Below are positions 4,152-62,942 of a DNA stretch of 64,000 bases, in pieces. Position numbers and translations under genes: made by a program. Positions within the stretch are counted from its first letter, which is position 1. Each line of letters starts with the position of its first letter. Source of the DNA: Bdellovibrionota bacterium (GTDB lineage Bacteria; Bdellovibrionota; Bdellovibrionia; Bdellovibrionales; JAMPXM01); the NCBI GenBank assembly GCA_963170185.1, contig CAUJGS010000041.1, forward strand, positions 8,262 to 72,261. Direction: 5' to 3'. Under the pieces are notes generated by a model that was not told where the DNA came from, made no database searches, and worked only from the letters and a program-made list of their open reading frames with translations.

Positions 4152-5107
4152 TTAAGGTCTTCGACGCCAATCGCCGGATAACCAGGAGTTTTTCGAAACT
4201 GTCGATTGAACTCTGTTTCCGACTTAAGCCAGGTTCCTTCGCGCACCAAGCCGCCCGCAAATTTCCAGTGATTGATCTCGGTTTGAAGAATCAAGGTGAT
4301 CGACTCGGTTTGCGGGAATCGTCGCTCAGGCGGCAAGGCAGCAGATTGAAAACCACGTTCGGTGGCACTTCGCAGCAGTGCACGTACGTGATCGGCAAGT
4401 GTCGTCTTGCCGAGTGATGCGATTTCGCTGATGAGTCCTGGGTGAGGCCCGAGCGCTTTACCGAATGTCTCGGTGCCGTACTGAGTCTCGCTCAGATCTT
4501 GAAGTATTTTGAGATCTTCAATGGCCGCTTGAAGCTCGGCTGAGTCGAGATTGACCAGAATATGAATAGCTGTGGGGAGAGCGATGCCAAAGAGATTGAA
4601 AGGCTGTGTAACAAGTCGGAGACGCGGTTGGCAGCCGGGGTCTCGTGTGAGGAGAAGTGTTGATGGGAGACCGATGTGACTTTCTTTTTTTATGCGAATG
4701 ACTTCGCTACAGTCTTCGAATCGAAAAGATGTCAGTTTCCAGCGACGAAAATCTGTGATGAACCGTGAGTCGACATAAGGCAGATCCGCGAAGTCAGGAG
4801 AGTTCGCCGCCGCTTTGGGATACTCGAAGCGAAGGACCTGTTCAAAAATCTCTTCGTCAAGAACGCCTAGTTCTTGAATGGAAATAGCCGGATGTAACCC
4901 ATGTGGACCCACGGGTAAAAGCACGCTGACGTCGTTGACGTCCAGGCCCCTTGTCGCTAAGCCGCGCGCCTTTGCGGAATACACCTGCGAAGCAGCCCAT
5001 GTGGTAAGCGAAAGCGCAATAAGCAGGGTGATGCTGGCGACGGTTTGCGCATAACGCACAAGTGGCCGCAGCGGCTTTTTTGTTCGAGCATTCATACGCG
5101 CTCTCAT
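4064..5107 (-). CDS. hypothetical exported protein (N-terminal segment of a possibly split gene)
   Basis: An internal ATG (5107 or 5095) gives MRARMNARTKKPLRPLVRYAQTVASITLLIALSLTTWAASQ, a signal/anchor sequence. The last ~25 codons after ...IGVEDLK look like out-of-frame read-through. Confidence 0.55.
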   Translation of the reverse strand: MRARMNARTKKPLRPLVRYAQTVASITLLIALSLTTWAASQVYSAKARGLATRGLDVNDVSVLLPVGPHGLHPAISIQELGVLDEEIFEQVLRFEYPKAAANSPDFADLPYVDSRFITDFRRWKLTSFRFEDCSEVIRIKKESHIGLPSTLLLTRDPGCQPRLRLVTQPFNLFGIALPTAIHILVNLDSAELQAAIEDLKILQDLSETQYGTETFGKALGPHPGLISEIASLGKTTLADHVRALLRSATERGFQSAALPPERRFPQTESITLILQTEINHWKFAGGLVREGTWLKSETEFNRQFRKTPGYPAIGVEDLKCDIHSSKSIQTTSAGTLRSQDSWNSCPS

Positions 5108-8106: not shown

Positions 8107-8706
8107 TTAGTCAGGCATTTCTCTTAAGCTCTTCTCGATTTCGATCCAGGCTCGCGCTTCGCGTCGGTTTGCACCGTTGCCCTCAAGCTGATTAAGACGA
8201 ATATAGTCACGAAGACCAAGTACCGCTCGCCAGCTTTCTACAATCCGCGTGAATGGACGATGGTCCCAAAAACGGAGCCTCTCTCGAGAATTCGACGACA
8301 CGTTACTGTCGGTTTGCCAACGTGTTCGTCCAGTCACGGCCTGTGCGATCGCACCAGTGATTGCGCGAATGAATCTTGCGTACGCAAAGCGATTCCCTAG
8401 CTTGATATGCAGGTGAAGGTGATTTCCGACATTCGCCATCGAAAGCACACGGACGCCGTTGGTGCGCGCAAATCGGAGAACGATGTTCGTCACGCGTCTG
8501 CGATGGCGGGTGTGTCGAAGTGACCACTCGCCCTTGGCGAGCGAAGATCGCAAGACCAGATGCATGGTTTGGCGAGTGGCAAGTGGCCTTGCGCCTCGGC
8601 CGGCGCGAGTTTTTCGAAGTTCACCACCATATGCGCTCTTTTCTCGTTTCAGCATGGCGAGCTGAGGTGAGCGAGGGGAGTTGCGTTTTGGTGGGTTCTT
8701 GCGCAT
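8107..8706 (-). CDS. IS200/IS605-type Y1 (HUH) transposase-like protein, RAYT-like, copy 1
   Basis: HUH motif NHLHLHIK; Tyr motif RDYIRLNQ (compare YIxxNP of RAYTs); beta-strand MHLVLRS. Start at the internal ATG 8706 by homology with copy 2. Paralog at 62166..62942. Confidence 0.6.
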   Translation of the reverse strand: MRKNPPKRNSPRSPQLAMLKREKSAYGGELRKTRAGRGARPLATRQTMHLVLRSSLAKGEWSLRHTRHRRRVTNIVLRFARTNGVRVLSMANVGNHLHLHIKLGNRFAYARFIRAITGAIAQAVTGRTRWQTDSNVSSNSRERLRFWDHRPFTRIVESWRAVLGLRDYIRLNQLEGNGANRREARAWIEIEKSLREMPD

Positions 8707-8712
8707 GCGTTT

Positions 8713-8741
8713 CTTGTATGTGACCGATGGTATAGAGTCAA
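8713..8741 (-). promoter_or_regulatory. putative sigma70-type promoter of RAYT-like copy 1
   Basis: Minus strand reads TTGACT (8741-8736), 17 nt, TACAAG (8718-8713), with ATG 7 nt further on. The geometry and -35 are identical to copy 2, but the -10 is weak. Confidence 0.3.
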
Positions 8742-8931
8742 CCAAGAGAGTCTGGCTAGACTATTAGGACGTGGGCAAAGAACGAGCTGGGAGGGCGTGT
8801 CGAAGCCGAATTGGTGATCACGGCGAGGCGAGGTATGGAGGCGAAAATGGTGCGCTATCGAGGAACGCGCGCCTACGGCCATCGAAACGTTTACGATCGC
8901 CCGCGCCTCCGAACGCGCCATCGCGCGCGCG

Positions 8932-10182: not shown

Positions 10183-10938
10183 ATGAGCCAACCTCCGCGT
10201 CCGTCGCCACTGCATTCGCCGATTTTTGCCGCCAAAGATCTGTTTGAAACCCGTTACCAAGGGGCCAATGCCGTGCTGGTCGCCGGTTCCGTTGTGCGCG
10301 GGGAGGCTTCGACGTATTCGGATCTCGATCTCGTCGTGATTTTTCCCAAAGTAGGAATGGCGTATCGCGAGTCGTTTACTCATAAGGGCTGGCCAGTGGA
10401 GGCGTTTATTCACGACCTCGAAACGCTTCGCTACTTCTTCTACCGTGTCGATCGTCCCGAGGGTTCGGCCACACTTTGCGACATGGTACGCGAAGGTCTT
10501 GAGGTTCCGGCGCCGACGGCGGCAACTCGTGAGGCGAAAGAACTCGCGGCCGAGATTCTACGCGAGGGACCTCCCAAGCTTGCGGCTGAAGACATCGAGG
10601 ATCGCCGCTATATGATCTCGGAAATGATCGACGACCTTCGTGAACCGCGCAGTCGACACGAACTAAACGCCTCCGGCGCACGTTTGTTTGGTGAGCTTGG
10701 CGACTTCTACTGCCGTTCGCGCGGCGGGTGGACAGGACACGGAAAAGGACTTCTCAAGCGAATCAAGTCGCAGGACCCGGTTTTGGCTCGTCGTTACTCG
10801 GAGGCCTTTGATCAGCTCTTTCAGCACGGTCAACCGGCGATGGTGATCACGATGGCCGAGGAACTGCTTGCGCCATACGGTGGGCTGCTGTTTGACGCCT
10901 ACCGTCGGGATGCGCTGCCAAGTCAGCGCGGCCGCTAG
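10183..10938 (+). CDS. nucleotidyltransferase-domain protein (KNTase/ANT-like two-domain architecture)
   Basis: Polymerase-beta NTase motif GSVVRGEASTYSDLDLVVIF, followed by a helical C-terminal domain. 251 aa. Confidence 0.65.
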   Translation: MSQPPRPSPLHSPIFAAKDLFETRYQGANAVLVAGSVVRGEASTYSDLDLVVIFPKVGMAYRESFTHKGWPVEAFIHDLETLRYFFYRVDRPEGSATLCDMVREGLEVPAPTAATREAKELAAEILREGPPKLAAEDIEDRRYMISEMIDDLREPRSRHELNASGARLFGELGDFYCRSRGGWTGHGKGLLKRIKSQDPVLARRYSEAFDQLFQHGQPAMVITMAEELLAPYGGLLFDAYRRDALPSQRGR

Positions 10939-12005
10939 TTCGAGCTAGGCTTTGCCGGAGCGTTGGCGACCGATGCGAAGAAATGCATGAGCAGGATCTG
11001 AACGTTGGTTGTCTCGCCTTCGTCGTTGTCGACGATTTCCGCGACATCGCGATGGAATTTTTCGACGAGTTCCAAAACCTTACCGGAAGCCTCTTTTGAC
11101 ATCGGCCGTACGCGGACCGAGGAAACACTCGGGTTGATCCAGTCTTGTGCGGGGGCGCCAGATGGTACAGTCAAGTAGCGTTCGGCGGTGAGGCCGGTAG
11201 AATATCGCGTAAGACCTTTCAGTCTCGTGTTGGCGAGACTTCCAAAGGAAAAACAATCGCCCTGACTTGTGTATCTCGTTCCGTCGAACTCGACACAGCC
11301 GAGTTCGAGAAGGGCTTTCAGCGTGGTGCGTGCTTCTTGCGTTGAGCAAGTCGCGTGTCTGGCGACGAAGTCGTCGTCATGCTTTTTAAGCGCTTTGTAA
11401 ACATCGAGTTCGATCGCCGCTTTGACAAACACCGCAAGGGGATTGGCCGCAACGAGGTCGATACATTGCTGATGCCAGGCATAGAAGGACTGAACTTCCG
11501 GAAGCAGCAAGGGGTCGACAAACCCCTCGAGCCACCCCATCAAGAGCGAGGGTTTTGAAGCGATAAGGCGCTGAACATCGGCGAGCATCACGTGTGACTC
11601 GCCGGCTTTCAGGCGACGAATGGTTCGGGGCGAACTGGAAAGTGCGCGTTGGATGAAGCGGTGATCGGTCAAAAAGTAGTTGATGACAGCTTTGGAGTTG
11701 AACTCGCCGACGAATGACCAAAAGATGCTGCGAAAATGTTTTTCGATCGCATGGCCTTCAAGTGTTGCGAGCTTGACGAAGTCGTCCCAAGAAATATGCG
11801 TCGATCCACTTTCCCATTTTCCGACCTGGTTGAACGAATATCCGAGCTTCTGACTTAAGTCGCGCTGAGTGCTGTCGCCGCGCATGGCGCGCACGATTTC
11901 ACGGGCGAGAGTGTCGTGATCGATCTTGGTCACCGGGCGTGGGCTATTAGGTGAGCGAAGGGGCGTTCCCGACTCAGGTGTGTTGGATGGTGGTTGAAGC
12001 TCCAT
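10935..12005 (-). CDS. HTH (XRE-like) protein, TIGR02147/DUF4423-like
   Basis: HTH segment STQRDLSQKLGYSFNQVGKWESGSTHISW, followed by a ~250-aa C-terminal domain. Architecture matches the TIGR02147 family. Confidence 0.6.
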   Translation of the reverse strand: MELQPPSNTPESGTPLRSPNSPRPVTKIDHDTLAREIVRAMRGDSTQRDLSQKLGYSFNQVGKWESGSTHISWDDFVKLATLEGHAIEKHFRSIFWSFVGEFNSKAVINYFLTDHRFIQRALSSSPRTIRRLKAGESHVMLADVQRLIASKPSLLMGWLEGFVDPLLLPEVQSFYAWHQQCIDLVAANPLAVFVKAAIELDVYKALKKHDDDFVARHATCSTQEARTTLKALLELGCVEFDGTRYTSQGDCFSFGSLANTRLKGLTRYSTGLTAERYLTVPSGAPAQDWINPSVSSVRVRPMSKEASGKVLELVEKFHRDVAEIVDNDEGETTNVQILLMHFFASVANAPAKPSSN

Positions 12006-12097
12006 ACGTCCCCTTTTTGTTTCCGGTTTTGGAGATCGGCGGACAAATCCGGAAAGTTCGGTCGTTTTCCTTACGACAAGGTCGAAGACTTAGCGGA

Positions 12098-13240
12098 ATG
12101 ATGAATTCAACTCAAATTCCAAAGTCTCAGTCGCTTGAAATCGAAATGGCAGCCATCTGGGCGCGTCAGGCTGCACGAGCCGCGTCGGGCGGTAACGCTC
12201 AGCCATGGGTCGTGAAGATAGAGCGTTTGTCTGACAATCGCCTTTTGTTTCGCTTAGGAATAGACTCTCGCTACTCTTGTCGGCCTTCGCCAATGGATGT
12301 CGATGGCAAGGCGGCGCTGATGGCGCTGGGGTGTTATGCGGTTTATGTCGAAGCTTTTGCGGCACTTGCCGGTTTCGAAGTTCAAAGTCGGTCTTTGGCG
12401 GCGGGGGAAACCGCGTGGGAGACAGAGGTCTCTCTGGTGTTTCGTCCGGTTGTTGGTGCGCGCAAGACGAAGTATTCCGAACAAGCGTTGCAGCAGCGTT
12501 GGACCGACCGTCGGGTTTATGAGACGGCGCCCTGTCCTCCTGATTTGCAGCGACGCATGCAAGATGTTTTAAAAGACTACGGCGGTATCCGCGCGACTTC
12601 GGTTCGCTCACGTATTGAGGCCGCAATCGGACCGTTAAGAAAACTCGAAGCCTTGCGCTGGAAAAACAAAAAATTTCGCGACTCGCTTTTTGAGGAGATC
12701 GACTTTTCCAGCGGCAAGGACGCTGGGGCGAGTAGGAAAATTCCCGCCTCACAACTGGGGGTTGAGGGGTTTGATCTTTTATTTTTGCGCTTGATGCACG
12801 GGTATCCCGCTTTGCGCACGATTTTAAGTATGGGTGGGTCGGAGATCGTCGCAAGAAAAACAGTGCCTCGCTTGCTTCGAGCTTCGTCGGGGGTTTGGTT
12901 TCTTCAGGCCGAAGTGAAATCAAACGCGGCCGTGTTTGATTTGGGAAGGTGCTTTCAGGAGCTATGGCTTGTCGTGAACGATTACGGCTATTCCTTTCAG
13001 CCCATAGGACTGCCTTTGGTGGCACTTTCTTATTGGAGCGGCGACAGTTGCGGGATCGGTCAATCGCCCGCGCAGACCGGTGTCGTGCGGGAGGTAACAG
13101 GGGTGCTTCGGGAGAAATTCGACTTAGACTTAAAAGAACTTGTTCTGGGCTTTCGCTTTGGCGCGACGAAAATCTCGCAAAGTGTTTCGTCAAGACTGAG
13201 CCCGCGCGCGGAACCGCAAATCGAAAGCAGCAAAACCTGA
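12098..13240 (+). CDS. tandem nitroreductase-like (Acg-family-like) FMN-binding protein
   Basis: Start at ATGATG 12098. Motif AARAASGGNAQPWVV resembles the nitroreductase SxxNxQPW signature. The ~380-aa length fits a two-lobed Acg-type protein. Confidence 0.6.
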   Translation: MMNSTQIPKSQSLEIEMAAIWARQAARAASGGNAQPWVVKIERLSDNRLLFRLGIDSRYSCRPSPMDVDGKAALMALGCYAVYVEAFAALAGFEVQSRSLAAGETAWETEVSLVFRPVVGARKTKYSEQALQQRWTDRRVYETAPCPPDLQRRMQDVLKDYGGIRATSVRSRIEAAIGPLRKLEALRWKNKKFRDSLFEEIDFSSGKDAGASRKIPASQLGVEGFDLLFLRLMHGYPALRTILSMGGSEIVARKTVPRLLRASSGVWFLQAEVKSNAAVFDLGRCFQELWLVVNDYGYSFQPIGLPLVALSYWSGDSCGIGQSPAQTGVVREVTGVLREKFDLDLKELVLGFRFGATKISQSVSSRLSPRAEPQIESSKT

Positions 13241-13380
13241 AGGACACAGCGACATATCCCGAATCTTTCGATGCCCCTGCATCGAAAGCAGCGAAGTCCG
13301 AAGGACGCAGCGACATATTCCAATCTTTCGATGCCCCTGCATCGAAAGCAGCGAAGTCCGAAGGACGCAGCGACATATTA
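13221..13380 (-). repeat. 2.7 tandem copies of a 60-bp two-hairpin element (family locus A)
   Basis: 13261-13320 and 13321-13380 differ at 2 positions; 13221-13260 is a degenerate partial copy. Each unit holds a perfect 10-bp stem (CTTTCGATGC/GCATCGAAAG, 4-nt loop) plus a small GTCC/GGAC hairpin. Confidence 0.95.
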
Positions 13381-14613
13381 GTTTCTGGCGTAGCCGTCGA
13401 AGTGAATGGGCCACGCGATCATGTCGCGTAGGGCGAATACGGTTCGAAAGTACGGAAGAACCGGAAGTGGCCAGGTGGCGCTTGGGTCGACCGCTTCGTA
13501 TGCGGAGCCGCCAAGAAACGAGGGCTCGTAGAGCGCGGAAAACACCTTGAGACGGCACTCTTTGAGCGCGCGAGCGATGATCTTGTCGAGTTCCAGATAC
13601 TGCGAGCGATACGTGCGTTCAAACGGCCAGCGTCCAGTGAGCTGGTCGCGCATGGAGAGTTCATTGGGCAGGCGATAATTGATCGCCGCGCAAAGGCCCG
13701 ACGGAAGCTTTTCGTCGCCAAAGCTTTTTAGTAGGCGTTCTTCGAGATTTAAGATGCTTAGGTAGCTCGAGCTTGCCAGCCAAGTCCGTCGGGCCCGACG
13801 TATGAGATTGGTCGGAAGCGGCTGCCATTTGGACTCTTGCAACCATCCGCGATCGACGTATTCACGATACGCGACACGCTCAAGATCAAGGATCGCAAGC
13901 CCGGTCAACAAGAGTGGCATGTACTCGGTGGTCAATAGTAGGCTTGCGAGCTTTCGTGTTTCGTGAAGAGCCTCTAGCGGTTGACCATCGAGAGTTCCTC
14001 TTAAGAGTCGAACCTTGGCGGCCGAGATGAGATCCAAAGTGTCTGGCGAGGGTATGAAATTGTAGGGAACGAACTGTCGTTTTTTTCCGAGCGCCTCCAA
14101 TGGAGACGCGGTTTCAATGTCCCAGATTTCGAATCCGCCGAGCTCCGAGAAGACGGCTGTTTCCCCTTTGAGGCGTCCACTTTCTAAAAAGCTTCGTCCT
14201 TTGATCCAGTCGTCTTGATAGCGCAAAAGAAATTCGCGCGACTCTGGCGGCACCAAAGGGGTTTTGCGGCCAAAGCTTGCTTGGTCGGCCGGTGCCGCTG
14301 GTGACCAGTAGAGTTTCGCATTGAGAACGGGACCTGCATTTTTTCCGGTTTTGGGCATCAGAGCCCGAAGCGGTTCGGCGGCGGGTGCGCTGTTTAAAAA
14401 CTCAAGATCGGCGCTGAAGGTGTCGTAGTGGCGCGCGTAGATCGCCTCGGTCTCATGAAGTTTCGTGGCGATGTTGCCGCGAAGAAGAAGCTCGACCGAG
14501 AGAATGTAGAGAAAAAAGAGCGCAATAAAGGACGGCGCTCCAAGAAGGAGCGCATGTCGAAGAGAGATTAGGCTGTTTGGGCTCGGAGCCACGTTCTCAC
14601 GTACGTCTTCCAC
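13378..14613 (-). CDS. hypothetical membrane-anchored protein
   Basis: 411-aa ORF with an N-terminal hydrophobic helix (LLLGAPSFIALFFLYILSVELLL). No domain recognised. Its 5' end overlaps the desaturase 3' end by 46 nt, so the true start may lie further downstream. Confidence 0.6.
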   Translation of the reverse strand: MEDVRENVAPSPNSLISLRHALLLGAPSFIALFFLYILSVELLLRGNIATKLHETEAIYARHYDTFSADLEFLNSAPAAEPLRALMPKTGKNAGPVLNAKLYWSPAAPADQASFGRKTPLVPPESREFLLRYQDDWIKGRSFLESGRLKGETAVFSELGGFEIWDIETASPLEALGKKRQFVPYNFIPSPDTLDLISAAKVRLLRGTLDGQPLEALHETRKLASLLLTTEYMPLLLTGLAILDLERVAYREYVDRGWLQESKWQPLPTNLIRRARRTWLASSSYLSILNLEERLLKSFGDEKLPSGLCAAINYRLPNELSMRDQLTGRWPFERTYRSQYLELDKIIARALKECRLKVFSALYEPSFLGGSAYEAVDPSATWPLPVLPYFRTVFALRDMIAWPIHFDGYARN

Positions 14614-15764
14614 GCTATGAGAGCATTGTTCATCTCAATGCGTGCAAGCTCAAGCTCCGCTCGCTTTTCAACCAAAACTTGATTCCAAGAATGTTCTTCT
14701 TTGTAGCGTTTGATATCGGCCTGGATGGCCTTCCAGCGCGTCTGAGCCGCCAGAATTCGTTCGCGAAGCAGGCGAACGCGTTCTTGATTGGCGCCGCGCG
14801 CCAAAATACGCTTCTCCTCCATGGCGATGCGGGCTTTTAAGATTTCCTCGGCTGAAACTTTTTTGAGCCGTTTGGCAAGGCCGACGATGGCCATCGAGGC
14901 GATGACCCACTTTGATGGGTCCCACTGATACCAGCGCACACCATTTCGGTAATCAGCTTGGAAGTAGTGGTGATAGTTGTGATAGCCCTCGCCGAAAGTG
15001 AGAAACGCCATCGTGAAGCTGTCGCGAGCGGTGTTTTTGTCGGTGTAAGGTTGGTTGCCGAACGTGTGTGCGGCCGAGTTGATCAAGAAGGTCGAGTGCT
15101 GCGAGAGCACGATGCGCGTGAGGCCGCCAACTAAAACTCCCGGCCAAAACCCAAAGCCAAGCGCCATTCCAATTAGACCCGGTACGACGAAGCCCATGAA
15201 GATCGCAACGACGATGTAGTAGTTGTGCTGAAGCTGGACCCACTTGTGCGTCGCTAGATCGCGGGGAATGACGTCGACATCGGGGTGGCGATCTTTGAAC
15301 AGCATCCAACCAAGGTGTGCGTGAAAGAAACCTTTGTTGATAGTGTAGGGATCTTCATCGGTATCGACTTCGCGGTGGTGGCGGCGGTGGTCCGCTGCCC
15401 AACGAAGCGCAGACCCTTGAAAGGCCATCGACGCCACCAGCAGGAACATCACCTGCACCCACATCGGCACATCAAAACTGCGATGCGCGAAGTAGCGGTG
15501 GTAACAAACGGTGATGCTCAAGTTGGAGATTGAATAGAGAATCACGAGAAACGCCGTTAATCCCCAGCTCCAACCATGAAAATACATGTAAATGGGAAGC
15601 AAGATGACAGCCAGCAGAGGTGTCACCACCAAGAAGATCGCACTGACCCAGTTGATCTCTCGCAAGAGTTCGCGGAACGTCATCTCTCGGACTGATTTAG
15701 GATGTGACGCTCGCGAATTCTCGATCTTTTGAACCGAGTCTGAAATTTGACTGTTCTGATTCAT
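14568..15764 (-). CDS. acyl-CoA (delta-9) fatty-acid desaturase
   Basis: Three His boxes: HRYFAHRSF, HRRHHREVDTDEDPY, HNYHHYFQADYRNG. Four TM helices, plus a coiled-coil-like C-terminal ~90 aa. Confidence 0.9.
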   Translation of the reverse strand: MNQNSQISDSVQKIENSRASHPKSVREMTFRELLREINWVSAIFLVVTPLLAVILLPIYMYFHGWSWGLTAFLVILYSISNLSITVCYHRYFAHRSFDVPMWVQVMFLLVASMAFQGSALRWAADHRRHHREVDTDEDPYTINKGFFHAHLGWMLFKDRHPDVDVIPRDLATHKWVQLQHNYYIVVAIFMGFVVPGLIGMALGFGFWPGVLVGGLTRIVLSQHSTFLINSAAHTFGNQPYTDKNTARDSFTMAFLTFGEGYHNYHHYFQADYRNGVRWYQWDPSKWVIASMAIVGLAKRLKKVSAEEILKARIAMEEKRILARGANQERVRLLRERILAAQTRWKAIQADIKRYKEEHSWNQVLVEKRAELELARIEMNNALIAWKTYVRTWLRAQTA

Positions 15765-20505: not shown

Positions 20506-20731
20506 GAACGATCAGTGGACACAGAATATCAAGGGTAAGTACTACGTCGATAAAACCTGTATCGCGTGCGATGCCTGCTGCATCGCTGCTCCCGGCAACT
20601 TCAAGATGAATGACGAAGAAGGTCACGCCTTCTTGTCGAAACAGCCTGATTCACAGGAAGAAGAAGAGCAGTGCAACGAAGCGATGGCTGGTTGCCCTGT
20701 TGAAGCCATCGGAAGCGACGGCGAGTCTTAA
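20495..20731 (+). CDS. small single-cluster ferredoxin
   Basis: CIACDACCIAAP ... CNEAMAGCPVEAI, the CxxCxxC...CP pattern. 78 aa from MPDKND. Confidence 0.8.
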   Translation: MPDKNDQWTQNIKGKYYVDKTCIACDACCIAAPGNFKMNDEEGHAFLSKQPDSQEEEEQCNEAMAGCPVEAIGSDGES

Positions 20732-20778
20732 TACATCGCTTGCTCGAGCGTGCGGTGGCACGCTCGAGCTCAATTTGG
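20729..20778 (+). repeat. one-hairpin variant of the repeat family (locus B)
   Basis: TAATACATCGCTT-GCTCGAGCGTGC-GGTG-GCACGCTCGAGC-TCAATTTGG. A perfect 12-bp stem (20742-20769) lies between the ferredoxin stop (20729-31) and the MscS stop (20770-72). Confidence 0.8.
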
Positions 20779-40126: not shown

Positions 40127-40638
40127 TTCTTCTTGTTCGCTTTGTCGTTGGCTTTTGCGATGGCGCGTGCGAGTTGAAGTTCGCGCCCGATTCGATAGAG
40201 AATGACCTGCTCCTCTAAACCGTCGCTTTTTTGTGTGACGGGTTCCGAGAAAAAGTCCCTTAAAATTTCAGCGCGCTTGGTGATCTGCACTTTGATGGCG
40301 GGTTTGTCTTCCGAGCGTCCGCGGACGAGACGCACGAGAAGTCGATAGCGATACCCTGGTGAGAGCGGCCCTGGTTCGAGAGGCGAACGAAACCGCGCTT
40401 CACCTTTGATGAAGTCCGTTTCGAAAATTCCGGCTTCGGTATTATCCACCTTTTGTGGGTAGCGAATCATGGACTGCTTGAGGGCGATCTCGACATCTTC
40501 GTAGTTGGCATAGAAGACCCGGCTATAAGGACCGCTCGAATTTTTGCGCTCTTCAAGACGCTGAGTCGCCGTCGTGCAAGCCGACAACGACAACAACAGC
40601 GATATGGCTAAGAAAGAAATATTGCCGCGCAACTGCAC
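40117..40638 (-). CDS. lipoprotein, function unknown
   Basis: GTG at 40638 gives M-QLRGNISFLAISLLLSLSAC (lipobox). In-frame sequence upstream overlaps the preceding gene. The start codon lies inside a repeat-family hairpin. Confidence 0.6.
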   Translation of the reverse strand: MQLRGNISFLAISLLLSLSACTTATQRLEERKNSSGPYSRVFYANYEDVEIALKQSMIRYPQKVDNTEAGIFETDFIKGEARFRSPLEPGPLSPGYRYRLLVRLVRGRSEDKPAIKVQITKRAEILRDFFSEPVTQKSDGLEEQVILYRIGRELQLARAIAKANDKANKKNQP

Positions 40639-40675
40639 GGCAAGCAGTACCGACCGGAGGTCGGTACGCCACCTA
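40621..40675 (-). repeat. two-hairpin repeat family, locus C
   Basis: Minus strand reads TAG-GTGGCG-TACCGACC TCC GGTCGGTA-CTGC-TTGCCGTGC AGTT GCGCGGCAA-TATTT. From CTGCT to ATTT it matches locus D at 27 of 31 positions. Confidence 0.8.
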
Positions 40676-42202
40676 TAGATCAACGGCGCTTTTTGAGACG
40701 TGCGAGAGTCCGTCGATAATGCTTGGGCTGAGACTGACGTTGGTTCCTTGAGTAGCAGCACCGAACAAAACCTCCCAGCGATGCGAGCCGGAGATCGCGC
40801 TTCCCATTTCAGGAAGTTCCATCGAAGCACTCCAGCCAGTCGCATAAACGTCCCAAACCGGTGACTTGCGGTCGATTTGCATCGAGCCCGAGGTCACACG
40901 ATCGATCTTGTTCAGCGTCGCATACGTCGCAGCAGGTGTCACGGAAGCAACCGACGACTTCGGCGGATTAAGGCCGAGAGTCGAGCCGCGCGCCGTTGGG
41001 GCTTTTGCGATATCGAGGAATTCAAACTTCGTCGTCCCCGTGTTGGGAGAAATCACGACCGACATAGCGTCAGCGCCCGCACCTGAGCTTGGTGCGTTGG
41101 TGTCGCGAAGTGCGCCGACGAGGTAGCCAGGAACGCCTTTTGGCGAAACGAGGCGACGTGTTTCCGAAGGTCCAAGTTTTTTGACGTCGGTTGGATACAG
41201 AAGCCCACCGTTTTCTGCGACGGAAACTGCGAGCATCGTTTGCGAGCTAGCAAAACGAGGTGCCGTCACGTCGACCTTTGCATCAAATACGGTGTCAGTG
41301 ATCGAGAGATCTTGGTTGGTAGACGGGCTAGAAAGCGCAATGTCTTTGATCGTGGCACTTTTAAATTCGAAGTAGTTTAAGATGTCGAAGAACGACTTTC
41401 CGGCGCGAAGATCGTCGACGACTTCTTCAAATGGGAAGCGCGCGTGAGCCGCGACCATTTTCCAAGTGCGTGGTTCTGGCAAATAGCTGCGGAACACGGG
41501 CTTGTCGAGCGTGATCGTGAAGAAGTAGCGCTCTTGCTGTTTAGGCAAGGAGACGTTGCTTGGAATATTGATCGACTGCCCCATGATCGTGATGGTGTCG
41601 ACTTCAGGGCTCACGAGATCTGTTACTTGCAACGATGCCAGTTGATCTTTGCGCAAAGCCGGGAAGATGACGCCGACGTCGACCCAGCCGTCTTGCTTGA
41701 GATTTTTAAAGCCAGTCGCTTTACCTTTAAGTTCCATGCGTTGCGCTTGGATCTTGCGGCGAACCTGAAGAGCCAGAGCTTGAGGTGCCTGATTCATCCA
41801 TGTTGCGCGAACGAAGCCAGCGACTTCGACAGTGATAGGCTGAGCGTCTGTCCATTGTGCGGGCAGGGCGATCTTGCCATCAGCGTCTGTTGTGAGCACG
41901 TTTCCAGGGAATGGGACATTTTCGCGTGCCCCGATCATGACCTTTGCTTGCGCCAAAGGCTGACCGCCTTGGTCAGCAACAAGCAGGTGGCCAGCGATAG
42001 GAGCCAAGGCTGTGATGCCCGCTTGGTTAGAGTCTGATGGGATCGAAACTTGTTCACGCGAGCAGGCTGCTGCGGAAAGCAGCAATGCCATGGGCAGAAC
42101 CACCCAGAACTTGGATGATAGGTTGGCTGACAGTTTGAATGACTGTTTGAATGACTGTGCAGTCTTGTTGGCCCGAGTCGTTTCCGTCTTTGGTCGAGTC
42201 AT
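40673..42202 (-). CDS. large lipoprotein, function unknown (carboxypeptidase-regulatory-like N-terminal fold possible)
   Basis: Lipobox LLLSAAAC. Segment GHLLVADQGGQPLAQAKVMIG...TTDADGKIALP resembles CarboxypepD_reg-type beta-sandwich domains. Confidence 0.6.
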   Translation of the reverse strand: MTRPKTETTRANKTAQSFKQSFKLSANLSSKFWVVLPMALLLSAAACSREQVSIPSDSNQAGITALAPIAGHLLVADQGGQPLAQAKVMIGARENVPFPGNVLTTDADGKIALPAQWTDAQPITVEVAGFVRATWMNQAPQALALQVRRKIQAQRMELKGKATGFKNLKQDGWVDVGVIFPALRKDQLASLQVTDLVSPEVDTITIMGQSINIPSNVSLPKQQERYFFTITLDKPVFRSYLPEPRTWKMVAAHARFPFEEVVDDLRAGKSFFDILNYFEFKSATIKDIALSSPSTNQDLSITDTVFDAKVDVTAPRFASSQTMLAVSVAENGGLLYPTDVKKLGPSETRRLVSPKGVPGYLVGALRDTNAPSSGAGADAMSVVISPNTGTTKFEFLDIAKAPTARGSTLGLNPPKSSVASVTPAATYATLNKIDRVTSGSMQIDRKSPVWDVYATGWSASMELPEMGSAISGSHRWEVLFGAATQGTNVSLSPSIIDGLSHVSKSAVDL

Positions 42203-48807: not shown

Positions 48808-51800
48808 ATGAGTTTTCGGCTTCGGAAAATCTCATTTTCGTCCCGATTGCTTGGGTCGATTTTAATTTCTTTTTCGGTGTTGATGTCTCCTTTCGGAGGC
48901 ATCGGCCGGGCGAATTCGTCGACCGATTCGTCGACAGTTACTCCCTCCGAGATGCCAGGTGTCGCTGCGGATACAATCCCGGACAACGCGACGGAAGAGA
49001 TGAAGGCTCTTCTTGCGTTGGAAATTCCCGAGACTAAACTTGAAGTGATGCAGACCAGAGGCGCTCGCGCCTTGATGGCCGGTCACGGCAAAGCCATTCA
49101 ACAGCTTGTTAGCGATATGGCGACAAAACTTGGTCTGGCCGGTGACCCGAAGGATGTCTCCGTCGTCTTGAATGCTGATCCATCGGTTAACGCCTTTGTC
49201 ATGACGGATCCGGCTACTAAGAAAGTCACGATCGGGTTGAATGCGGGGCTTTTGTCATTCGTCAAAAACCAGGACGAATTGGCCCTTGTGCTCGCACACG
49301 AGATGACCCACATGAATCCCGCGGTCCTTCGCCACCGGGCGGATTCAGGTACACTTGCGAAAATCACGAGTGCGATTCCCAAACAGATTCAAGGCCGACA
49401 GGCTGAGGAGCTACGTGCAGACCTTGGCGCTGTTCAGCGGATGATCAAGGGCGGGTACAACCCTTGGGGCAGCTACGATTTTTTCAAGAGGCTCTCCGCC
49501 AAGCGGGACCTGTCGGGAAATAGCACCGTCAGAACTCTTGTGTCCATGATCTCGACACATCCGGACCCGCAGCTTCGCATGAGCGTGGTGAAGAGCTACA
49601 TCACTGCGAGGCAGGCCGAAGAGAACTTGATGGAAGTGACCGGCAAGTACAACGGCTTTCCAAAAGGGTTGGAGGCCATGCGCTGGAGACTTGCGGCGTA
49701 TCGTGGATTGGCGGACGTCAATAAAGTGAAAGCGGGTGTCGCCGCGGTCGCAGCTGTAGGGGCCCAAGTCGCTACGGCGCTGATCGTTTCGCCGGAGACG
49801 GCCGATGCCATGGGAGTTTTGTTGCGACCGGGAACGGATCTCATCGGGATGGTGTCTTCGGTGAAGGAATTGATATTGAGCCCGGCGGAACTAGGGGCAC
49901 CCATCTTAGGTTCTGGTTATTTACCAAGTTCGGGGGCTGGTTCGTACGGAGCGGTTTCAAGTTTGGGAGGAGAGATCGCCGAAAAGGCGAGCTATCTAAA
50001 AAATGTGCCTCTTGAAAAGGTAGCAACCGTCGTCGGGTCATTGGTGGGGTCAGGAGTTGCTGGGCGCTGGGCGATCAATCGCGTTCGAGCAGATGCAAAG
50101 AGAGCAGCTGCGGATGCCAAATTCGAACGACTCGTGCAAGAGGTTTTGGAAAAGTCGAAAACAGCGATGGATATTCGCAAGGCGATTTCCAGAACCGAAG
50201 ACGCGGTGAAGCTCTATGCAGAGCTTCATAAAAAAGGTCAGTTCGATCGCACGAAGGTGCTTGAGGCGGCGCTGGCTTCGAATGAGAAATCATTCTCTGG
50301 CTTACGTCTCACAGACGAAGTCTACTCAATGATTCGAAGTTATGGCTATGATCCCAGATCTACAGTTGAGTATCTCAACTCTCTCGTTAAAGAAGAGGCT
50401 GCAAAACGCCAACTTCTCCTCAATGAAATTGTTGATGACTCAATTGCGAGGCTTCCTGCATCGCGGACACGGGCCATGATCGCGACCATAGGAAGAATGC
50501 CCGAAGTATACGTTTCACGGCCGGATATGCAAGATTCACTCGATAGGCTTATCGAGACTGCTAAAAAAAGAGATCCGTCGCTTCGGTTCTCAACGAGAAT
50601 TGAGAGAATCAAGCTTATTCAAAAACAGACAGGCCGAATCGGGAGTGCCGTGACACTCTCAAATGGTGTATCTGAGACTGCGGCTACTCCCCCACGTCTT
50701 CTCGAGGTTATGGAGATTGCCGAGAAGCTAAGAACTGCGGACCGAAGCGTGATTGCACCGAGGGGATCGCCTCCGCCGAAGGGAGCGTCCGTTAATCGTG
50801 TCGAAGTTCGCCGTTTGCGTTATCTGAATTTGCCAGAGCTTGTGATGCAGAATATCGATTCTTGGGTGCAGGAAGTAGAGGTTCCCGGCGAACGAGGCGT
50901 CAGGGCTGATACCACATTGAGAGCCGCGATTCGAGATGCAACCGAGATGTTGCTCGATGGTGGGTCTGGCGAGAGACACATTGAATTCAATCGTAAAGTA
51001 CTTCAAGTCTTTGCTGAACGTGTATCGAAAACAGATAGTGTTCGCCTGAGTCGGTTACCTGGCAGTGCTGGTTTGACGGCGGCATCCTTCACCAAGACTT
51101 CCAAAATTCCTGGGATCAAGCCTGTAATGTCTTTCGACGACACGACGGAAAAGTTGCGAGAGCTCAATAAATGGAACAACCTGTTTTTAAAAAAGGTAGA
51201 GGGAGCGAATTCCGTCGTCGAACTCGATGATCTTGTGCAAAAACTGCTTGTCGAGCGAGAGAAATTAGATCCGAACGATTCGCCGATATCGCTGCTTCAT
51301 AAACATATAGAGGCGAGGCCGGACCTTTTAAAGACTTCCGAAGATATCGACCGCTTGTTGAAGAGCCCATACTTATGGAACCAGCTTGGCACGGGCTACG
51401 GAGATCTCGATCAGAAAATCTTGGATGATATGCGCTCCAGGTACGGAAGTAGCAGTTCGCAGGCTGATCTTTGGAAGTATCGACCAGAGGCTTCCGAACG
51501 CCTGCAAAAGCGTATTCTTACGAGACTAGAAGAGCTCGGAAAATCGCCGAAGACGTTCGATGAACGACTTAAAACCTGGCAAATGTTTGTCGGTCGCGGA
51601 GTCACGAACACGACAGACACGATGTTCGCCAAACTTTATGAAGAGGCCGACCCCAAAACTCGTGGACGTCTGCGTGAAATTTCGCGAGGGCGTATTTGGG
51701 AGCCACGTCTTCGTGCAAGTATCTTGAAGGATCGTATCGCCGAAACCTCGGAGTATAAGCAGCTTGTCGCGACGTCTCGTGACGCTCAGCTCTCGCGTGA

Positions 51801-53808
51801 GGCGGAGCGGCTTCGCATCTCGAATCTCCGCCAGGTGATTCGTGTGGCGGAGCAGGAGTTTGACTCGCGTGGGCCTGACTATGATCGTGTCGTTGAATCG
51901 GTTTTAAACGATGTTCGCTCGTCGGCTTTGGAGACTCGTTATGCCGAACGGTATCGTGGGCCGGTTGGCCAGGGCCAGTCGGACCTTACCATGCGAACAC
52001 TTTCGGGTTTGGTCGAGCGAATGCGAAAAATGGAAAAGAATGAAAAGTGGGAGTTCATTCTGTGGCTTCGTGGCGAAAAGGCTGCAAGCAAATCTATAGA
52101 AGAAATGTTCCCGGCGATTGGGTCGGACCGTGTTGCACGCATGTACACACTCTTGCCTGACTATCAAAAGGCCCTTGTCATTGATTCGGTTTTGGATTCG
52201 AAAGAGGGCTTGCTGCCAACGGCTGATGTGAATTCGTTCTGGGGTCGAAAGATTGTGGATCATCTAATTGGCGGTGGGAGTTCGGATAGCGCCGATACCG
52301 TGAAGAACCGTCAGATCGCTCGTGAGATTTTGGAGTCTTACTTGGCGAGCTTTGATGGGCCGGGTGCTAATAAAGCTCAGCGCACCTTGGTGCTGTCTTA
52401 CATGCTGGCGAGTAAGTCAGGTGATGGCTCCAACGGCAAAGTTCTTAAACAGGTTCTCGAGGCGATGGGTGCAAGTGGTGTCAAGATCGGTCAGTTCTTG
52501 GTTGCAACGGACATTCTCGGGGAAGAGGAGAACAAAGTTCTTCGTCAGCTTCAGGATCAAGCCAATGTTCCATTTCGAACGCGGATCTACGAAGATCTAG
52601 CGAAAGCAAAAGGCATTCAGCCCCCTAAAAAGGTCGATGATCTTTTGGGAGCCGCATCGATCAAATATGCGGTCCAGGCCTTTGAAGTGGAAGACGGAAA
52701 TCCGTTTGTTTTAAAGGTTCTTCGTTCCGAGGCGTCTGCGACGATCGATCAGCAATTTGCACGACTGCGATCGATGTCGGACTCTCTCGTTAAAAAATAT
52801 GGTGGTAAGTACGGAGTTCTGCGCTCGGTTATCCGTGCTTCTGAGGAAGCCGTCAGGCGTGAGCTCACCTTGTCTAACGAAACAAAGAGCTCGGCAAGGG
52901 CCGCCGAAATTTATCGCGCCGTTTCGGATTTCGAGGTTCCAAAGGAAAGACTGGTGGACTCGAGTTTGATCAAATCGGATTTCGCGCATGGCGGATCGAT
53001 TCACGATCTCGATCTCGAAGAACGAGGTCGTGTGGCATCGAGAATTATGGAAGTCGAACGAGATATTCTTTTTGGCGACAAAGATGTGATCGAATTTGAT
53101 CCGGATCGACACCCTGGAAACTTCAAGGTCGAAATCACGGGCGAGGACAAAGTTCGGGTTCGACCGATCGATTTTGGACAGTTCATTAAGATCACAAAGC
53201 AAGAACGAGATCAGGTCATCGATCTTTTTGCCCAGTCGGCGATTTTGGACAAAACCGGACCGACCAAACGGTCGATCGACCGCATCGCGGAGTCTTTAAA
53301 ACTCTCGTCCGCGGAAAAGTCCAAACTCATGAAAAGTTTGAAATCAGGATTTCCGTCGAAAAACCGAACCGGTTTGGCGTCGTACTACACTTTGTTGGCG
53401 GCGCTTGAAGATGCAGGAAAGCCACAGCCAATTCAGTTCTTCGATTTCGCCCGTGCGGTTGTTCAACACAACCAATACGAAGACATGGTTATGAGCTCTC
53501 TTATGGCCAAGGGAATGAGTGAATCTGAAGCCAGGGCCGCGGTTCCGACTCCACGGGAAAAGCTAGTTCAACTGGTCAAGGCGAGTGCGGATAGACAGAT
53601 CGCAACCGGTACTGGAGTGCCGGAGTTTTCGAAAACGGACAAGGTTCGGATTGTTTGGAATCGCACCCAAAAGAAGGCCGACGAGATCGTCGGTGACATC
53701 AAGACCCGAGTTCGAGCGGCTACCTTCAAGAAGGTTGTCGATCCGACGCTTGTGCTCGGTTCCGATTGTGCAAAGTTTTTTAAAGATATCAAGCGAAGCT
53801 GGGATTAA
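48808..53808 (+). CDS. 1666-aa exported fusion protein: N-terminal M48-type Zn peptidase, long helical middle, C-terminal ABC1/UbiB-type atypical kinase domain
   Basis: Signal-like N-terminus. M48 motifs LAHEMTHMNP and STHPDPQLRM. ABC1 motifs VKIGQFLVATDIL, GAASIKYAVQAF...FVLKVLR, DPDRHPGNFKV, IDFGQF. Confidence 0.8.
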   Translation: MSFRLRKISFSSRLLGSILISFSVLMSPFGGIGRANSSTDSSTVTPSEMPGVAADTIPDNATEEMKALLALEIPETKLEVMQTRGARALMAGHGKAIQQLVSDMATKLGLAGDPKDVSVVLNADPSVNAFVMTDPATKKVTIGLNAGLLSFVKNQDELALVLAHEMTHMNPAVLRHRADSGTLAKITSAIPKQIQGRQAEELRADLGAVQRMIKGGYNPWGSYDFFKRLSAKRDLSGNSTVRTLVSMISTHPDPQLRMSVVKSYITARQAEENLMEVTGKYNGFPKGLEAMRWRLAAYRGLADVNKVKAGVAAVAAVGAQVATALIVSPETADAMGVLLRPGTDLIGMVSSVKELILSPAELGAPILGSGYLPSSGAGSYGAVSSLGGEIAEKASYLKNVPLEKVATVVGSLVGSGVAGRWAINRVRADAKRAAADAKFERLVQEVLEKSKTAMDIRKAISRTEDAVKLYAELHKKGQFDRTKVLEAALASNEKSFSGLRLTDEVYSMIRSYGYDPRSTVEYLNSLVKEEAAKRQLLLNEIVDDSIARLPASRTRAMIATIGRMPEVYVSRPDMQDSLDRLIETAKKRDPSLRFSTRIERIKLIQKQTGRIGSAVTLSNGVSETAATPPRLLEVMEIAEKLRTADRSVIAPRGSPPPKGASVNRVEVRRLRYLNLPELVMQNIDSWVQEVEVPGERGVRADTTLRAAIRDATEMLLDGGSGERHIEFNRKVLQVFAERVSKTDSVRLSRLPGSAGLTAASFTKTSKIPGIKPVMSFDDTTEKLRELNKWNNLFLKKVEGANSVVELDDLVQKLLVEREKLDPNDSPISLLHKHIEARPDLLKTSEDIDRLLKSPYLWNQLGTGYGDLDQKILDDMRSRYGSSSSQADLWKYRPEASERLQKRILTRLEELGKSPKTFDERLKTWQMFVGRGVTNTTDTMFAKLYEEADPKTRGRLREISRGRIWEPRLRASILKDRIAETSEYKQLVATSRDAQLSREAERLRISNLRQVIRVAEQEFDSRGPDYDRVVESVLNDVRSSALETRYAERYRGPVGQGQSDLTMRTLSGLVERMRKMEKNEKWEFILWLRGEKAASKSIEEMFPAIGSDRVARMYTLLPDYQKALVIDSVLDSKEGLLPTADVNSFWGRKIVDHLIGGGSSDSADTVKNRQIAREILESYLASFDGPGANKAQRTLVLSYMLASKSGDGSNGKVLKQVLEAMGASGVKIGQFLVATDILGEEENKVLRQLQDQANVPFRTRIYEDLAKAKGIQPPKKVDDLLGAASIKYAVQAFEVEDGNPFVLKVLRSEASATIDQQFARLRSMSDSLVKKYGGKYGVLRSVIRASEEAVRRELTLSNETKSSARAAEIYRAVSDFEVPKERLVDSSLIKSDFAHGGSIHDLDLEERGRVASRIMEVERDILFGDKDVIEFDPDRHPGNFKVEITGEDKVRVRPIDFGQFIKITKQERDQVIDLFAQSAILDKTGPTKRSIDRIAESLKLSSAEKSKLMKSLKSGFPSKNRTGLASYYTLLAALEDAGKPQPIQFFDFARAVVQHNQYEDMVMSSLMAKGMSESEARAAVPTPREKLVQLVKASADRQIATGTGVPEFSKTDKVRIVWNRTQKKADEIVGDIKTRVRAATFKKVVDPTLVLGSDCAKFFKDIKRSWD

Positions 53809-54597: not shown

Positions 54598-54629
54598 TAA
54601 AAAAGAGCCGGTATTCACCGGCTCTTTTT
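54598..54629. terminator. bidirectional intrinsic terminator
   Basis: AAAAAAA-GAGCCGG-tattca-CCGGCTC-TTTTT, with A- and T-tracts on both sides. Confidence 0.85.
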
Positions 54630-54644: not shown

Positions 54645-54733
54645 GAGGGTGCGGTTCGTAGCGACACCCCTCAAATCTCGCCGCGCCACTGCACGGCGAG
54701 CAGCTTAGGGCGAAGCCCTAAGCGACACCCTTA
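54645..54733 (-). repeat. two-hairpin repeat family, locus D (one full copy plus a partial second copy)
   Basis: Minus strand reads TAAGGGTGTCGCT-TAGGGC TTC GCCCTA-A-GCTG-CTCGCCGTGC AGTG GCGCGGCGAG-ATTTGA, then GGGGTGTCGCTACGAACCGCACCCTC. Confidence 0.85.
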
Positions 54734-62103: not shown

Positions 62104-62131
62104 CGACTGGCGACTGGCGACTGGCGACTGG
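62104..62131. repeat. 4 x 7-bp perfect tandem repeat (CGACTGG)
   Basis: cgactgg cgactgg cgactgg cgactgg lies between the convergent MutT-like and RAYT-like genes. Confidence 0.95.
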
Positions 62132-62165
62132 CAGGTGGCGGCTGCATTCGGAGTTCGGCACGCCA

Positions 62166-62942
62166 TCATATTCGTGACTCGGGTTTTCTTGGGTCGGATC
62201 TTTTTAGGTCGGATATTCTTAGCACTGGTCTTCGCGTCTTGCTTTCTAGCCAAGCCCGCGCCTCTAGGCGACTGACGCCGAAACCTTCGAGTTGGTTGAT
62301 GCGAACATAATCGCGCATGTTGAGAACCGCGCGCCAGCTCTCGATGATTCTCGTGAATGGGCGGTAGTCCCAAAACTGCAACTTGGCTGACCCGACATTT
62401 CTCGACTGGTTGTTTTGCCAGCGCGTGCGTCCGGTTACAGCTTGTGCGATGGCGCCGGTTACGGCTCGGATGAACCCGGCGTAGGAATGGCGATTTCCAA
62501 GTTTGATGTGAAGATGCAGATGATTTCCGACGTTGGCCATCGACAAGATACGCACGCCGTTTTTGAGCGCAAATCGTTTGATGATGGCCCCCACGCGGTT
62601 GCGATTCTTCGGGTGGCGGAACGACCATTCTCCCTTTGCTTTTGTCGAGCGCAGCACGAGGTGCATGCTGTGCCTTGTTGCGAGCGGCCTGGCTGTAGAG
62701 CGGCCCTCGCGAGTGTTGCGAAGCTCGCCACCATACGCACTTCTTTGTCGTTTTATCAGGGTCAGTTGCGGCGAACGTGTAGCTGGCCGCGTGACCGGCT
62801 GTGTAGCTGGCCGTGCGAATGGCCGTGCAACTGATGGCGGCCGCGTAGCTGGCGGTGGCTGTGTAGCCAAGGAGGATGTTGGTCGGTCTTTCACTCGTTT
62901 TGACTGCGGGATTGAGCGGGTAGCGGCTTTTCCTGATCGCAT
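62166..62942 (-). CDS. IS200/IS605-type Y1 (HUH) transposase-like protein, RAYT-like, copy 2
   Basis: Same motifs as copy 1 (NHLHLHIK, RDYVRINQ). About three quarters identical to copy 1 by hand alignment over the core. Has an extra Pro/Thr/Arg/Ala-rich N-terminal ~45 aa. Confidence 0.6.
   Translation of the reverse strand: MRSGKAATRSIPQSKRVKDRPTSSLATQPPPATRPPSVARPFARPATQPVTRPATRSPQLTLIKRQRSAYGGELRNTREGRSTARPLATRHSMHLVLRSTKAKGEWSFRHPKNRNRVGAIIKRFALKNGVRILSMANVGNHLHLHIKLGNRHSYAGFIRAVTGAIAQAVTGRTRWQNNQSRNVGSAKLQFWDYRPFTRIIESWRAVLNMRDYVRINQLEGFGVSRLEARAWLESKTRRPVLRISDLKRSDPRKPESRI

Follow-up and report, generated by a model that had tools for sequence, protein, structure and literature searches.

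A head-to-tail array of a two-hairpin element between convergent genes in a Bdellovibrionales bacterium, probably a local amplification of a dispersed REP-like repeat

The 64,000-nucleotide stretch of DNA analysed here (the window; positions 8,262 to 72,261 of contig CAUJGS010000041.1) comes from a bacterium of the Bdellovibrionales and contains, at 13220-13380, a tandem array of a 60-bp element with two hairpins. The array (locus A) lies between two convergent genes and fills the gap between them, as an earlier note made from the letters alone had described: it starts on the TAA stop (13380-13378) of a minus-strand gene and reaches the TGA (13238-13240) of a plus-strand gene. The minus-strand gene (13378..14613) encodes a 411-aa hypothetical protein and forms an operon with a fatty-acid desaturase gene (14568..15764), the array being its immediate 3' flank. 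The convergent gene (12098..13240, plus strand) encodes a nitroreductase-like protein of 380 aa, counted from MMNSTQ..., with a weak match to Pfam PF00881 and with homologues to which it can be aligned; a 98% homologue of the 380-aa form was found. A 428-aa open reading frame (ORF) on the minus strand (12090-13376) lies antisense to the nitroreductase-like gene and extends into the array; it matches nothing in Pfam, is most likely a shadow ORF and could mislead gene callers.

Tandem Repeats Finder delimits the array as 13220-13379, with a period of 60, 2.6 copies and 93% matches. Read on the minus strand, it begins with a full unit (unit 1, 13321..13380) followed by a second one (unit 2, 13261..13320) that is 58/60 identical to it; direct reading upholds the description of the two as direct repeats in which the first (g/c) and last (c/a) bases alone differ. 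In unit 1 the TAA stop is followed by TA, a TGTCGCT box (13375-13369), the core of hairpin 1 (GTCC-TTC-GGAC, 13366-13356), the linker GCTGC, hairpin 2 (CTTTCGATGC-AGGG-GCATCGAAAG, 13348-13325) and an ATTG tail; in unit 2 the box lies at 13309-13315, the hairpin 1 core at 13296-13306 and hairpin 2 at 13265-13288. Both hairpins of the proposed minus-strand reading are indeed present, a 10-bp stem with a 4-nt loop (13265-13288 and 13325-13348) and a GTCC/GGAC stem with a 3-nt loop. Unit 3 (13229..13260, minus strand) is truncated and consists of a box, a decayed hairpin 1 and the GCTGC linker, with 34/40 identity to a full unit by direct reading. A covariance model of the family, introduced below, matches unit 1 at 13320-13377(-) with 76.2 bits (E 7e-17), unit 2 at 13260-13317(-) with 75.6 bits and unit 3 weakly at 13169-13256(-) (E 0.018). 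Both the 24-nt hairpin core and the 29-nt second half are found exactly twice in the window; the number expected from shuffles is 0.

The internal identity of units 1 and 2 means that their duplication is very recent, and the array is best read as a head-to-tail local amplification of a dispersed repeat, with two identical units and a truncated one. A CRISPR array was considered and rejected, as the whole 60-bp period repeats and there are therefore no unique spacers. Both strands of the array fold equally well, and z-scores for folding of the 201-nt region, -0.43 for the minus and -1.90 for the plus strand, are uninformative.

The same module order had been claimed for three further loci in the window, and two of these are genuine. 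Member B (54672-54733, minus strand) is matched by the model with 75.4 bits and was found by repeat search as a 64%-identical copy at 54674-54731; it reads TAA-GGGTGTCGC, hairpin 1 (GCTTAGGGC-TTC-GCCCTAAGC), hairpin 2 (CTCGCCGTGC-AGTG-GCGCGGCGAG) and ATTTG, and its linkers agree with those of the array, while both stems differ and yet still pair. It is followed first by part of a second box (54660-54670) and next by a bidirectional terminator of canonical type (54600-54629). Member C (40616-40675, minus strand; 67 bits), seen in a hairpin census as a two-hairpin locus at 40622-40667, reads TAG-GTGGCG, hairpin 1 (GTACCGACC-TCC-GGTCGGTAC), hairpin 2 (TTGCCGTGC-AGTT-GCGCGGCAA) and TATTT. All three loci thus start, on the minus strand, at the stop codon of a minus-strand gene (TAA-TATGTCGCT... 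in A, TAA-GGGTGTCGC... in B, TAG-GTGGCG... in C). Member C directly follows the stop of the gene at 40673..42202(-) and overlaps the likely start of the next gene, which encodes a lipoprotein (MRGNISFLAISLLLSLSAC...): its hairpin 2 (within 40616-40650(-)) covers the probable GTG/TTG start and could occlude it, and no clear Shine-Dalgarno sequence was seen there.

What was likely meant as the third locus (locus D, 20731-20775, plus strand) is not a demonstrable member and was left unassigned, having one hairpin only and no covariance model match. It looks like a version of the element reduced to one hairpin, and is a single 12-bp hairpin with the loop GGTG, preceded by TAA-TACATCGCT, which fills the gap between a Fer4_13 gene and a convergent MscS gene; the junction is different in one related stretch (L040; stretches outside the window are given by such handles) and absent in another (L042). 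Contigs assembled from short reads of other samples end inside A (L001, L003, L039, L088), B (L048) and C (L089), as recurrence of near-identical k-mers at other places in the genome would lead one to expect.

The family was sought beyond the window with a degenerate 30-nt pattern composed of hairpin 2 and the linkers, which within the window matches only loci A, B and C. Applied to a collection with one genome per species, the pattern gave 31 loci. Four Bdellovibrionales metagenome-assembled genomes (MAGs) account for 18 matches in 17 loci, and every one of these 18 has a perfectly paired hairpin 2, a hairpin 1 upstream and a GTGTCGCT-type box; none of the 13 matches in other taxa has a hairpin, and their number equals the chance expectation. 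A metagenome collection yielded 34 loci by pattern and one true member, the tandem pair L075, the rest being rejected because their scores of 20-31 bits were produced by the 30-nt pattern match alone. Viral contigs gave two pattern matches, no more than chance, and the context of the element is chromosomal. The covariance model (R1), built from 20 units and run over 174 kb of family loci and the window, finds 26 solid copies. Beyond the window the family numbers at least 20 copies, spread over four Bdellovibrionales MAGs and one metagenome contig. These relatives, together with the NCBI names of homologous proteins, place the source in Bdellovibrionales/Bdellovibrionota. The earlier note had allowed that the array would shrink to a local duplication if no further copies turned up; both the genome search and the covariance model turned them up, and the claim of a multi-locus family holds, with three loci in the window and others in Bdellovibrionales MAGs. 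An Rfam scan of the whole window at gathering thresholds found tRNA-Met only, and the best match of a permissive local scan was IhtA, at 15 bits against 76, which assigns no family.

Across the copies the unit is a composite of ~58 nt, made of an unpaired TGTC/CGTC-type box, hairpin 1, a 2-nt spacer TG, hairpin 2 and an ATT tail. The sense-strand consensus runs (TAR)-N0-3-GTGTC, hairpin 1 (GCTACGGCC-TCC-GGCCTTCGC) and TG in its 5' part, and hairpin 2 (CTTTCCGTGC-AGTG-GCGCGGAAAG) and ATT in its 3' part. Hairpin 1 has 21 nt, up to 9 bp and a 3-nt loop, its stem being a perfect 9 bp in B, C, L016 and L022 and interrupted by an internal loop in many other copies; hairpin 2 has 24 nt, 10 bp and an AGKG loop. 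In nearly all aligned copies the extended hairpin-1 stem is immediately preceded, on its 5' side, by TGTC, CGTC or CGAC. The hairpin-1 loop of the consensus invites a reading as anti-Shine-Dalgarno mimicry (CCUCC), which was rejected since the loop is TTC, TCT, TAC or CCA elsewhere, the array included.

Pairing in these stems is strongly maintained. Among 20 distinct copies, 87% of cells pair overall and 99.5% in hairpin 2, with compensatory double changes in 12/19 pairs; none of 500 shuffles reaches the observed values, and partners slid out of register give ~40% pairing. The two strands are not equivalent: at one base pair of hairpin 2, 8 copies have U-A and 12 have U·G, which would be a C×A mismatch on the opposite strand, and G·U pairs occur only on the strand that is co-oriented with the upstream gene. 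The sense fold is the more stable one in 20/26 copies (mean -25.9 against -23.3 kcal/mol). Such strong covariation in both helices, the conservation of the single-stranded linkers and the G·U asymmetry in favour of the transcribed strand are what one would look for in a dedicated cis-acting RNA motif selected at the ends of genes and tRNAs (a regulator in the 3' untranslated region (UTR), a processing or RNase site, or the precursor of a small RNA) rather than in a selfish or neutral repeat. The genomic context adds to this side: at all 18 evaluable loci the element is co-oriented with the upstream gene or tRNA, and it sits at a precise place, immediately behind stop codons or 2 nt past tRNA 3' ends. 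Against such a motif stand the lack of an Rfam family, the unrelated functions of the genes that it would serve, the copies behind strong terminators, the occurrence of truncated and hairpin-1-only units, and array units whose identity speaks for very recent duplication rather than for selection on each copy. The comparison of orthologous sites set out below weighs in the same direction, and altogether we regard this explanation as quite improbable beside that of a REP-like repeat (REP, repetitive extragenic palindromic), which we prefer.

At 12 loci the stop of a long same-strand ORF (TAA in 6, TAG in 6 and TGA in none) lies 1-9 nt before position 1 of the model, and the distance from stop to box is 0 to 8 nt. 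Six loci follow a same-strand tRNA (L008, L025, L027, L028, L029 and L075), which is 6 of ~21 independent loci and far above the share of tRNAs among genes. The element begins 2 nt past the tRNA 3' end in two of them and lies behind the tRNA's own terminator in three. At L029:5056-5190(+) it follows the last tRNA-Thr of a Thr-Tyr-Gly-Thr cluster by 2 nt, and at L075:120-345(+) it follows a tRNA ending in CCA by the same distance. The distance to the downstream gene is far looser, from -3 to >150 nt.

Stable, GC-containing hairpins exactly between convergent genes, as at locus A, could also be taken for transcription terminators that work without a U-tract, or in both directions. No T-run follows either hairpin on either strand, however, and a terminator scan of the array found neither a U-tract nor a terminator-like site, in line with the earlier note, which had called the hairpins non-canonical in this respect. 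The organism, moreover, uses canonical hairpin-plus-U-tract terminators, and these adjoin the element itself, directly downstream of it in B and in L034 and directly upstream of it at the tRNA loci L008, L025 and L027. The element is therefore not the terminator, and a terminating role for its hairpins is barely credible.

Tandem arrays with a period of 60-67 bp occur in the window and in L015, L022, L033 and L075, and all units in all arrays stand head-to-tail on one strand. Partial second boxes lie behind the single units of B, L011, L014, L032 and L034. At L012:4250-4480(-), downstream of a unit at 4487-4544, there are three tandem modules with hairpin 1 only (GGGGACGCT-GAAGCC-TTC-GGCTT...). 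These modules lack hairpin 2, which implies that the family is modular and that its modules can be amplified separately.

The history of the array site can be read from orthologues of the 411-aa gene and their DNA (L087, L040 and L041-43). The stop of this gene has the same position in all relatives examined (YARN*, YARP*, YARGGN*, and ...YARP* in L087), so the element sits exactly behind a native stop, which it does not itself provide. L087 (82% identity) has the same two convergent genes with a unique spacer of 98 nt between them, in which the covariance model finds no match even with filters off. L040 (85% identity) has a 4-nt gap after the orthologue of the 411-aa gene and no element; the neighbouring 418-aa gene is not an orthologue of the nitroreductase-like gene, for which reason L040 was rejected as an empty site and L087 used instead. 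L041-43 (76% identity) have a gap of 33 nt that holds a mini-module (given as 34 nt in L041) of box, hairpin 1 and GATT. The element is not conserved at the orthologous site: the relatives at 85% and 82% lack the element and the one at 76% has the mini-module only. Judged from these alignments, the array arrived at its site after the divergence from relatives at 82-85% identity and is a recent insertion, and the element is gained and lost between close relatives. It behaves, therefore, as a DNA repeat that comes and goes rather than as a conserved regulatory RNA.

The other end of the array preserves the junction. In L087 the nitroreductase-like gene ends, without an element, in CAA ATC GAG AGC TAT TAG (QIESY*). 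An alignment of protein C-termini with their DNA shows that the window gene shares this end as CAA ATC GAA AGC and then continues as AGC AAA ACC TGA. The last three codons and the stop (S K T stop, 13229-13240) are supplied by unit 3, and the I-E-S codons (ATC GAA AGC, 13220-13228) are native coding sequence. The earlier view that a degenerate third copy encodes IESSKT is hence right about the truncation and about the origin of S-K-T and the stop from the element, and wrong about I-E-S, which L087 shows to be native. These nine native nucleotides (ATCGAAAGC, 13220..13228) at the same time match the element's hairpin-2 arm plus linker without a difference, and unit 3 is cut off exactly at this shared sequence, which is the signature of a 9-nt microhomology junction. 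We estimate the chance expectation of such a microhomology at ~0.007, for the last ~30 nt of the gene and a position anywhere in the 58-nt unit. The junction is the same in the 98% strain L088. In comparison with L087, the insertion replaced the last codon or codons of the nitroreductase-like gene and removed the former spacer.

The surroundings of this site are themselves in flux. Gene content between the 411-aa gene and a deoxyhypusine-synthase-like gene differs in every relative examined (10935-13240 in the window compared with L040:11250-16410, L041:3293-4048 and L087:2590-5606), which places the element at the edge of a variable region.

Genes that might bear on the mobility of the repeat are present in the window as two Y1_Tnp paralogues, both on the minus strand: the first at 8107..8745 (24.7 bits in Pfam against a gathering score of 23) and the second at 62166..62942 (26.3 bits against 23). 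Their proteins are 69% identical and share the HUH motif NHLHLHI; their best NCBIfam match, 'REP-associated tyrosine transposase' (RAYT), reaches 22-23 bits, far below the cut-off of 80, and a sequence search of the PDB gave a marginal match to the ISDra2 TnpA (E 0.22). The first gene keeps its synteny in L040 and L041, and the same samples contain a third paralogue (P0037). The protein family counts 688 homologues, many of them labelled RayT by JGI or, in Bdellovibrionota MAGs, 'transposase' by NCBI. At their 5' ends the two genes share a 40-nt promoter-like sequence (8702-8741 and 62938-62977) with, on the minus strand, TTGACT-17 nt-TATATT or TACAAG. Short tandem repeats lie around and upstream of the second gene (62104-62144, 63039-63168 and 63358-63518), among them CGACTGG x4, units of 12 to 18 bp and imperfect repeats of 45 bp.

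These genes make it conceivable that the element is a minimal non-autonomous relative of the IS200/IS605 type (PATE-like, with two end hairpins) which the RayT-like Y1 transposases of this genome mobilise in trans on single-stranded DNA and insert 3' of a short target such as YTAR. Such an element would make the DNA-level half of the REP-like explanation that we favour more specific. The fit is good in several respects: as in PATEs, there are two different subterminal hairpins, no terminal inverted repeats and no target duplication in 20+ junctions inspected, and unpaired nucleotides are conserved 5' of hairpin 1, where the guide sequences of IS200/IS605 elements lie (PMC8266576). Insertion 3' of a YTAR-like target would explain the flush position at TAA and TAG stops, six of each and no TGA, with the native stop position unchanged. 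On the protein side, it is consistent with the two window paralogues and the third from the same samples, their HUH motif, their best NCBIfam match and the many homologues labelled RayT by JGI. Other observations speak against it. The 5' flank is TAA/TAG in 12 loci and different elsewhere, not YTAR after tRNAs and terminators, so that there is no fixed tetra- or pentanucleotide target, and the distance from stop to box is not fixed either. The right junction of the array is a microhomology, typical of recombination or template switching rather than of transposition. Five Y1 contexts were inspected for the element without success, no element adjoins any Y1 gene in 84 kb of Y1 contexts, no autonomous parent with these ends was seen, and the Y1 proteins fall far below the family cut-offs for both RAYT and IS200 (22 bits against 80).

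Replication gives a further test, as transposition of IS200/IS605 elements is biased with respect to the replication strand. All units in the window are on the C-rich strand, and GC skew is positive throughout, from +0.05 to +0.17 in every 4-kb bin, from which it follows that the whole window lies on one replichore with the plus strand leading. Over 20 loci, orientation against local GC skew is nevertheless ~9:11, and a replication-strand bias was rejected, though the skew of short contigs is noisy and the negative a weak one. Overall we consider an IS200/IS605-type element unlikely.

A bolder possibility is a mobile hairpin module, locked in orientation, which a mechanism of its own directs to the precise ends of transcription units and which is moved by a multi-copy RayT-like Y1 clade specific to Bdellovibrionota and outside the classic REPtrons. 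HUH-mobilised repeats would then choose their targets in a new way, and 3'-UTR hairpins would be installed genome-wide in a natural system. We think it distinctly unlikely, and the Y1 genes give a lead only, on which no REPtron can be claimed.

The explanation that serves best, to which we assign a probability of roughly 0.72, is that the array is a local amplification of a lineage-specific, dispersed REP-like repeat of an uncultured Bdellovibrionales lineage. The repeat would have spread at the level of DNA, probably through single-stranded hairpin intermediates and a Y1/HUH enzyme, or through template switching or illegitimate recombination, and its arrays probably grow by slippage or unequal exchange. 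At the level of RNA, the co-orientation of copies with the upstream gene or tRNA and the better pairing on that strand make it most likely that transcription takes in the element as the first part of the 3' UTR. By analogy with the REP hairpins of Escherichia coli, its stable hairpins, which lack a U-tract, would stop 3'-to-5' exonucleases and thereby stabilise the message upstream; REPs are reported, by Newbury et al. in 1987, to stabilise upstream mRNA. Hairpin 1 begins ~10 nt past the stop codon and may thus interfere with the terminating ribosome. REPs within ~15 nt of a stop codon reportedly lower expression through ribosome stalling (Liang, Rudd and Deutscher, 2015).

Several observations weigh against this explanation. 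The documented copies come to only 3 loci (4.5 units) in the 64 kb of the window and 13 strict-pattern matches on 12 contigs of one fragmentary MAG, and two 20-kb stretches from the same or related genomes (L050 and L040) are without any copy. The absence of the element next to the Y1 genes counts here as well, as does that of the classic arrangement of bacterial interspersed mosaic elements (BIMEs), where inverted REPs alternate, all copies here being head-to-tail. Transcription, RNA stabilisation and an effect on translation we infer, and copies downstream of tRNA terminators would be poorly transcribed. Palindromic DNA repeats, finally, can keep their pairing by processes at the DNA level, so that covariation is no proof of a role as RNA.

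The family adds REP-like repeats to relatives of predatory bacteria, the Bdellovibrionales being a group absent from published REP surveys, and it does so with an unusual architecture: the two hairpins differ, copies run strictly head-to-tail, and they always abut the upstream gene or tRNA and share its orientation. It breaks the short-read assemblies of these organisms, it can rewrite gene ends, as it did with the last codons of the nitroreductase-like gene, and it could serve as a marker for strain typing. The clean pair of filled and empty orthologous sites, together with the microhomology junction, provides a concrete case of the arrival of a repeat and its conversion to coding sequence. 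Why all copies are flush against and co-oriented with the end of an upstream gene or tRNA is the more interesting question, and with so strict an orientation the family lends itself well to testing whether or not an RNA-level role is what REP-like repeats are kept for. Apart from the repeat, the window contains a 1666-aa ORF (48808-53808, plus strand) with an M48 peptidase domain near its N-terminus and an ABC1 atypical-kinase domain near its C-terminus, which is an unusual fusion.

Among known systems, the BOX elements of pneumococci resemble the family in some ways: they are built of small modules in variable numbers, one of them tandemly reiterated, and they are intergenic, transcribed with their neighbours and capable of stable secondary structure. 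They are not flush with stop codons or locked in orientation as here, and the present element is unrelated to them in sequence, size and host.

The likeness to REPs is much closer. Most REPs are found no more than 20 bp from an ORF 3' end, between ORFs that converge or run in one direction; they may carry CGTC or TGTC tags, be tandemly reiterated, and supply stop codons or become coding, and for CGTC REPs no dedicated transposase is known (PMC3733652). Three generic features of a REP are found in our element: a short stem-loop palindrome, an unpaired tetranucleotide at the foot of the stem and a position near ORF 3' ends. Like the CGTC/TGTC REPs described by Di Nocera, De Gregorio and Rocco in 2013 (PMC3733652), it has a stable palindrome with an unpaired tag (here GTGTC, GCGTC or GCGAC, ahead of hairpin 1); its copies are dispersed in intergenic DNA and lie immediately 3' of ORFs, whose ends and stops they can overlap; and those REPs, too, can form species-specific families and tandemly reiterated clusters. 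It differs from their families CGTC-1 to CGTC-4 in detail. These have stems of 8-9 bp with A/T in positions 1-2, loops of 4-5 nt, CCA tails and mostly head-to-head dimers (PMC3733652), whereas here the stem starts with G-C/C-G, the loop has 3 nt, the tail is TG, a second and different hairpin of 10 bp is always present, and copies run head-to-tail without exception, strictly in the orientation of the upstream gene. Bdellovibrionota is not among the taxa of that survey (PMC3733652), and we found no earlier description of such a repeat in Bdellovibrio in the literature.

Definitions of REP, BIME and REPtron for this comparison were taken from PMC8266576. With the REP-BIME/RAYT REPtrons of E. coli and Pseudomonas (PMC8266576; PMC2817692) the family shares a palindromic and extragenic repeat that forms arrays and is thought to fold when single-stranded, as well as Y1/HUH RayT-like genes in the same genome whose positions are conserved among relatives, as is typical of a domesticated gene. 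Unlike these systems, it has no GTAG tag, no array contains REP/inverted REP pairs alternating with linkers, and in the window, L040, L041, L044, L046 and L048-L052 no RayT-like Y1 gene is bracketed by the repeat; there are at least three Y1 paralogues rather than a single copy, and they are only distantly related to curated RAYTs (22 bits against 80). Since general features of REPs are present and the particular ones of CGTC-1 to CGTC-4, BIMEs and REPtrons are not, we file the element as a new family of the known REP-like class, rather than as a new kind of system.

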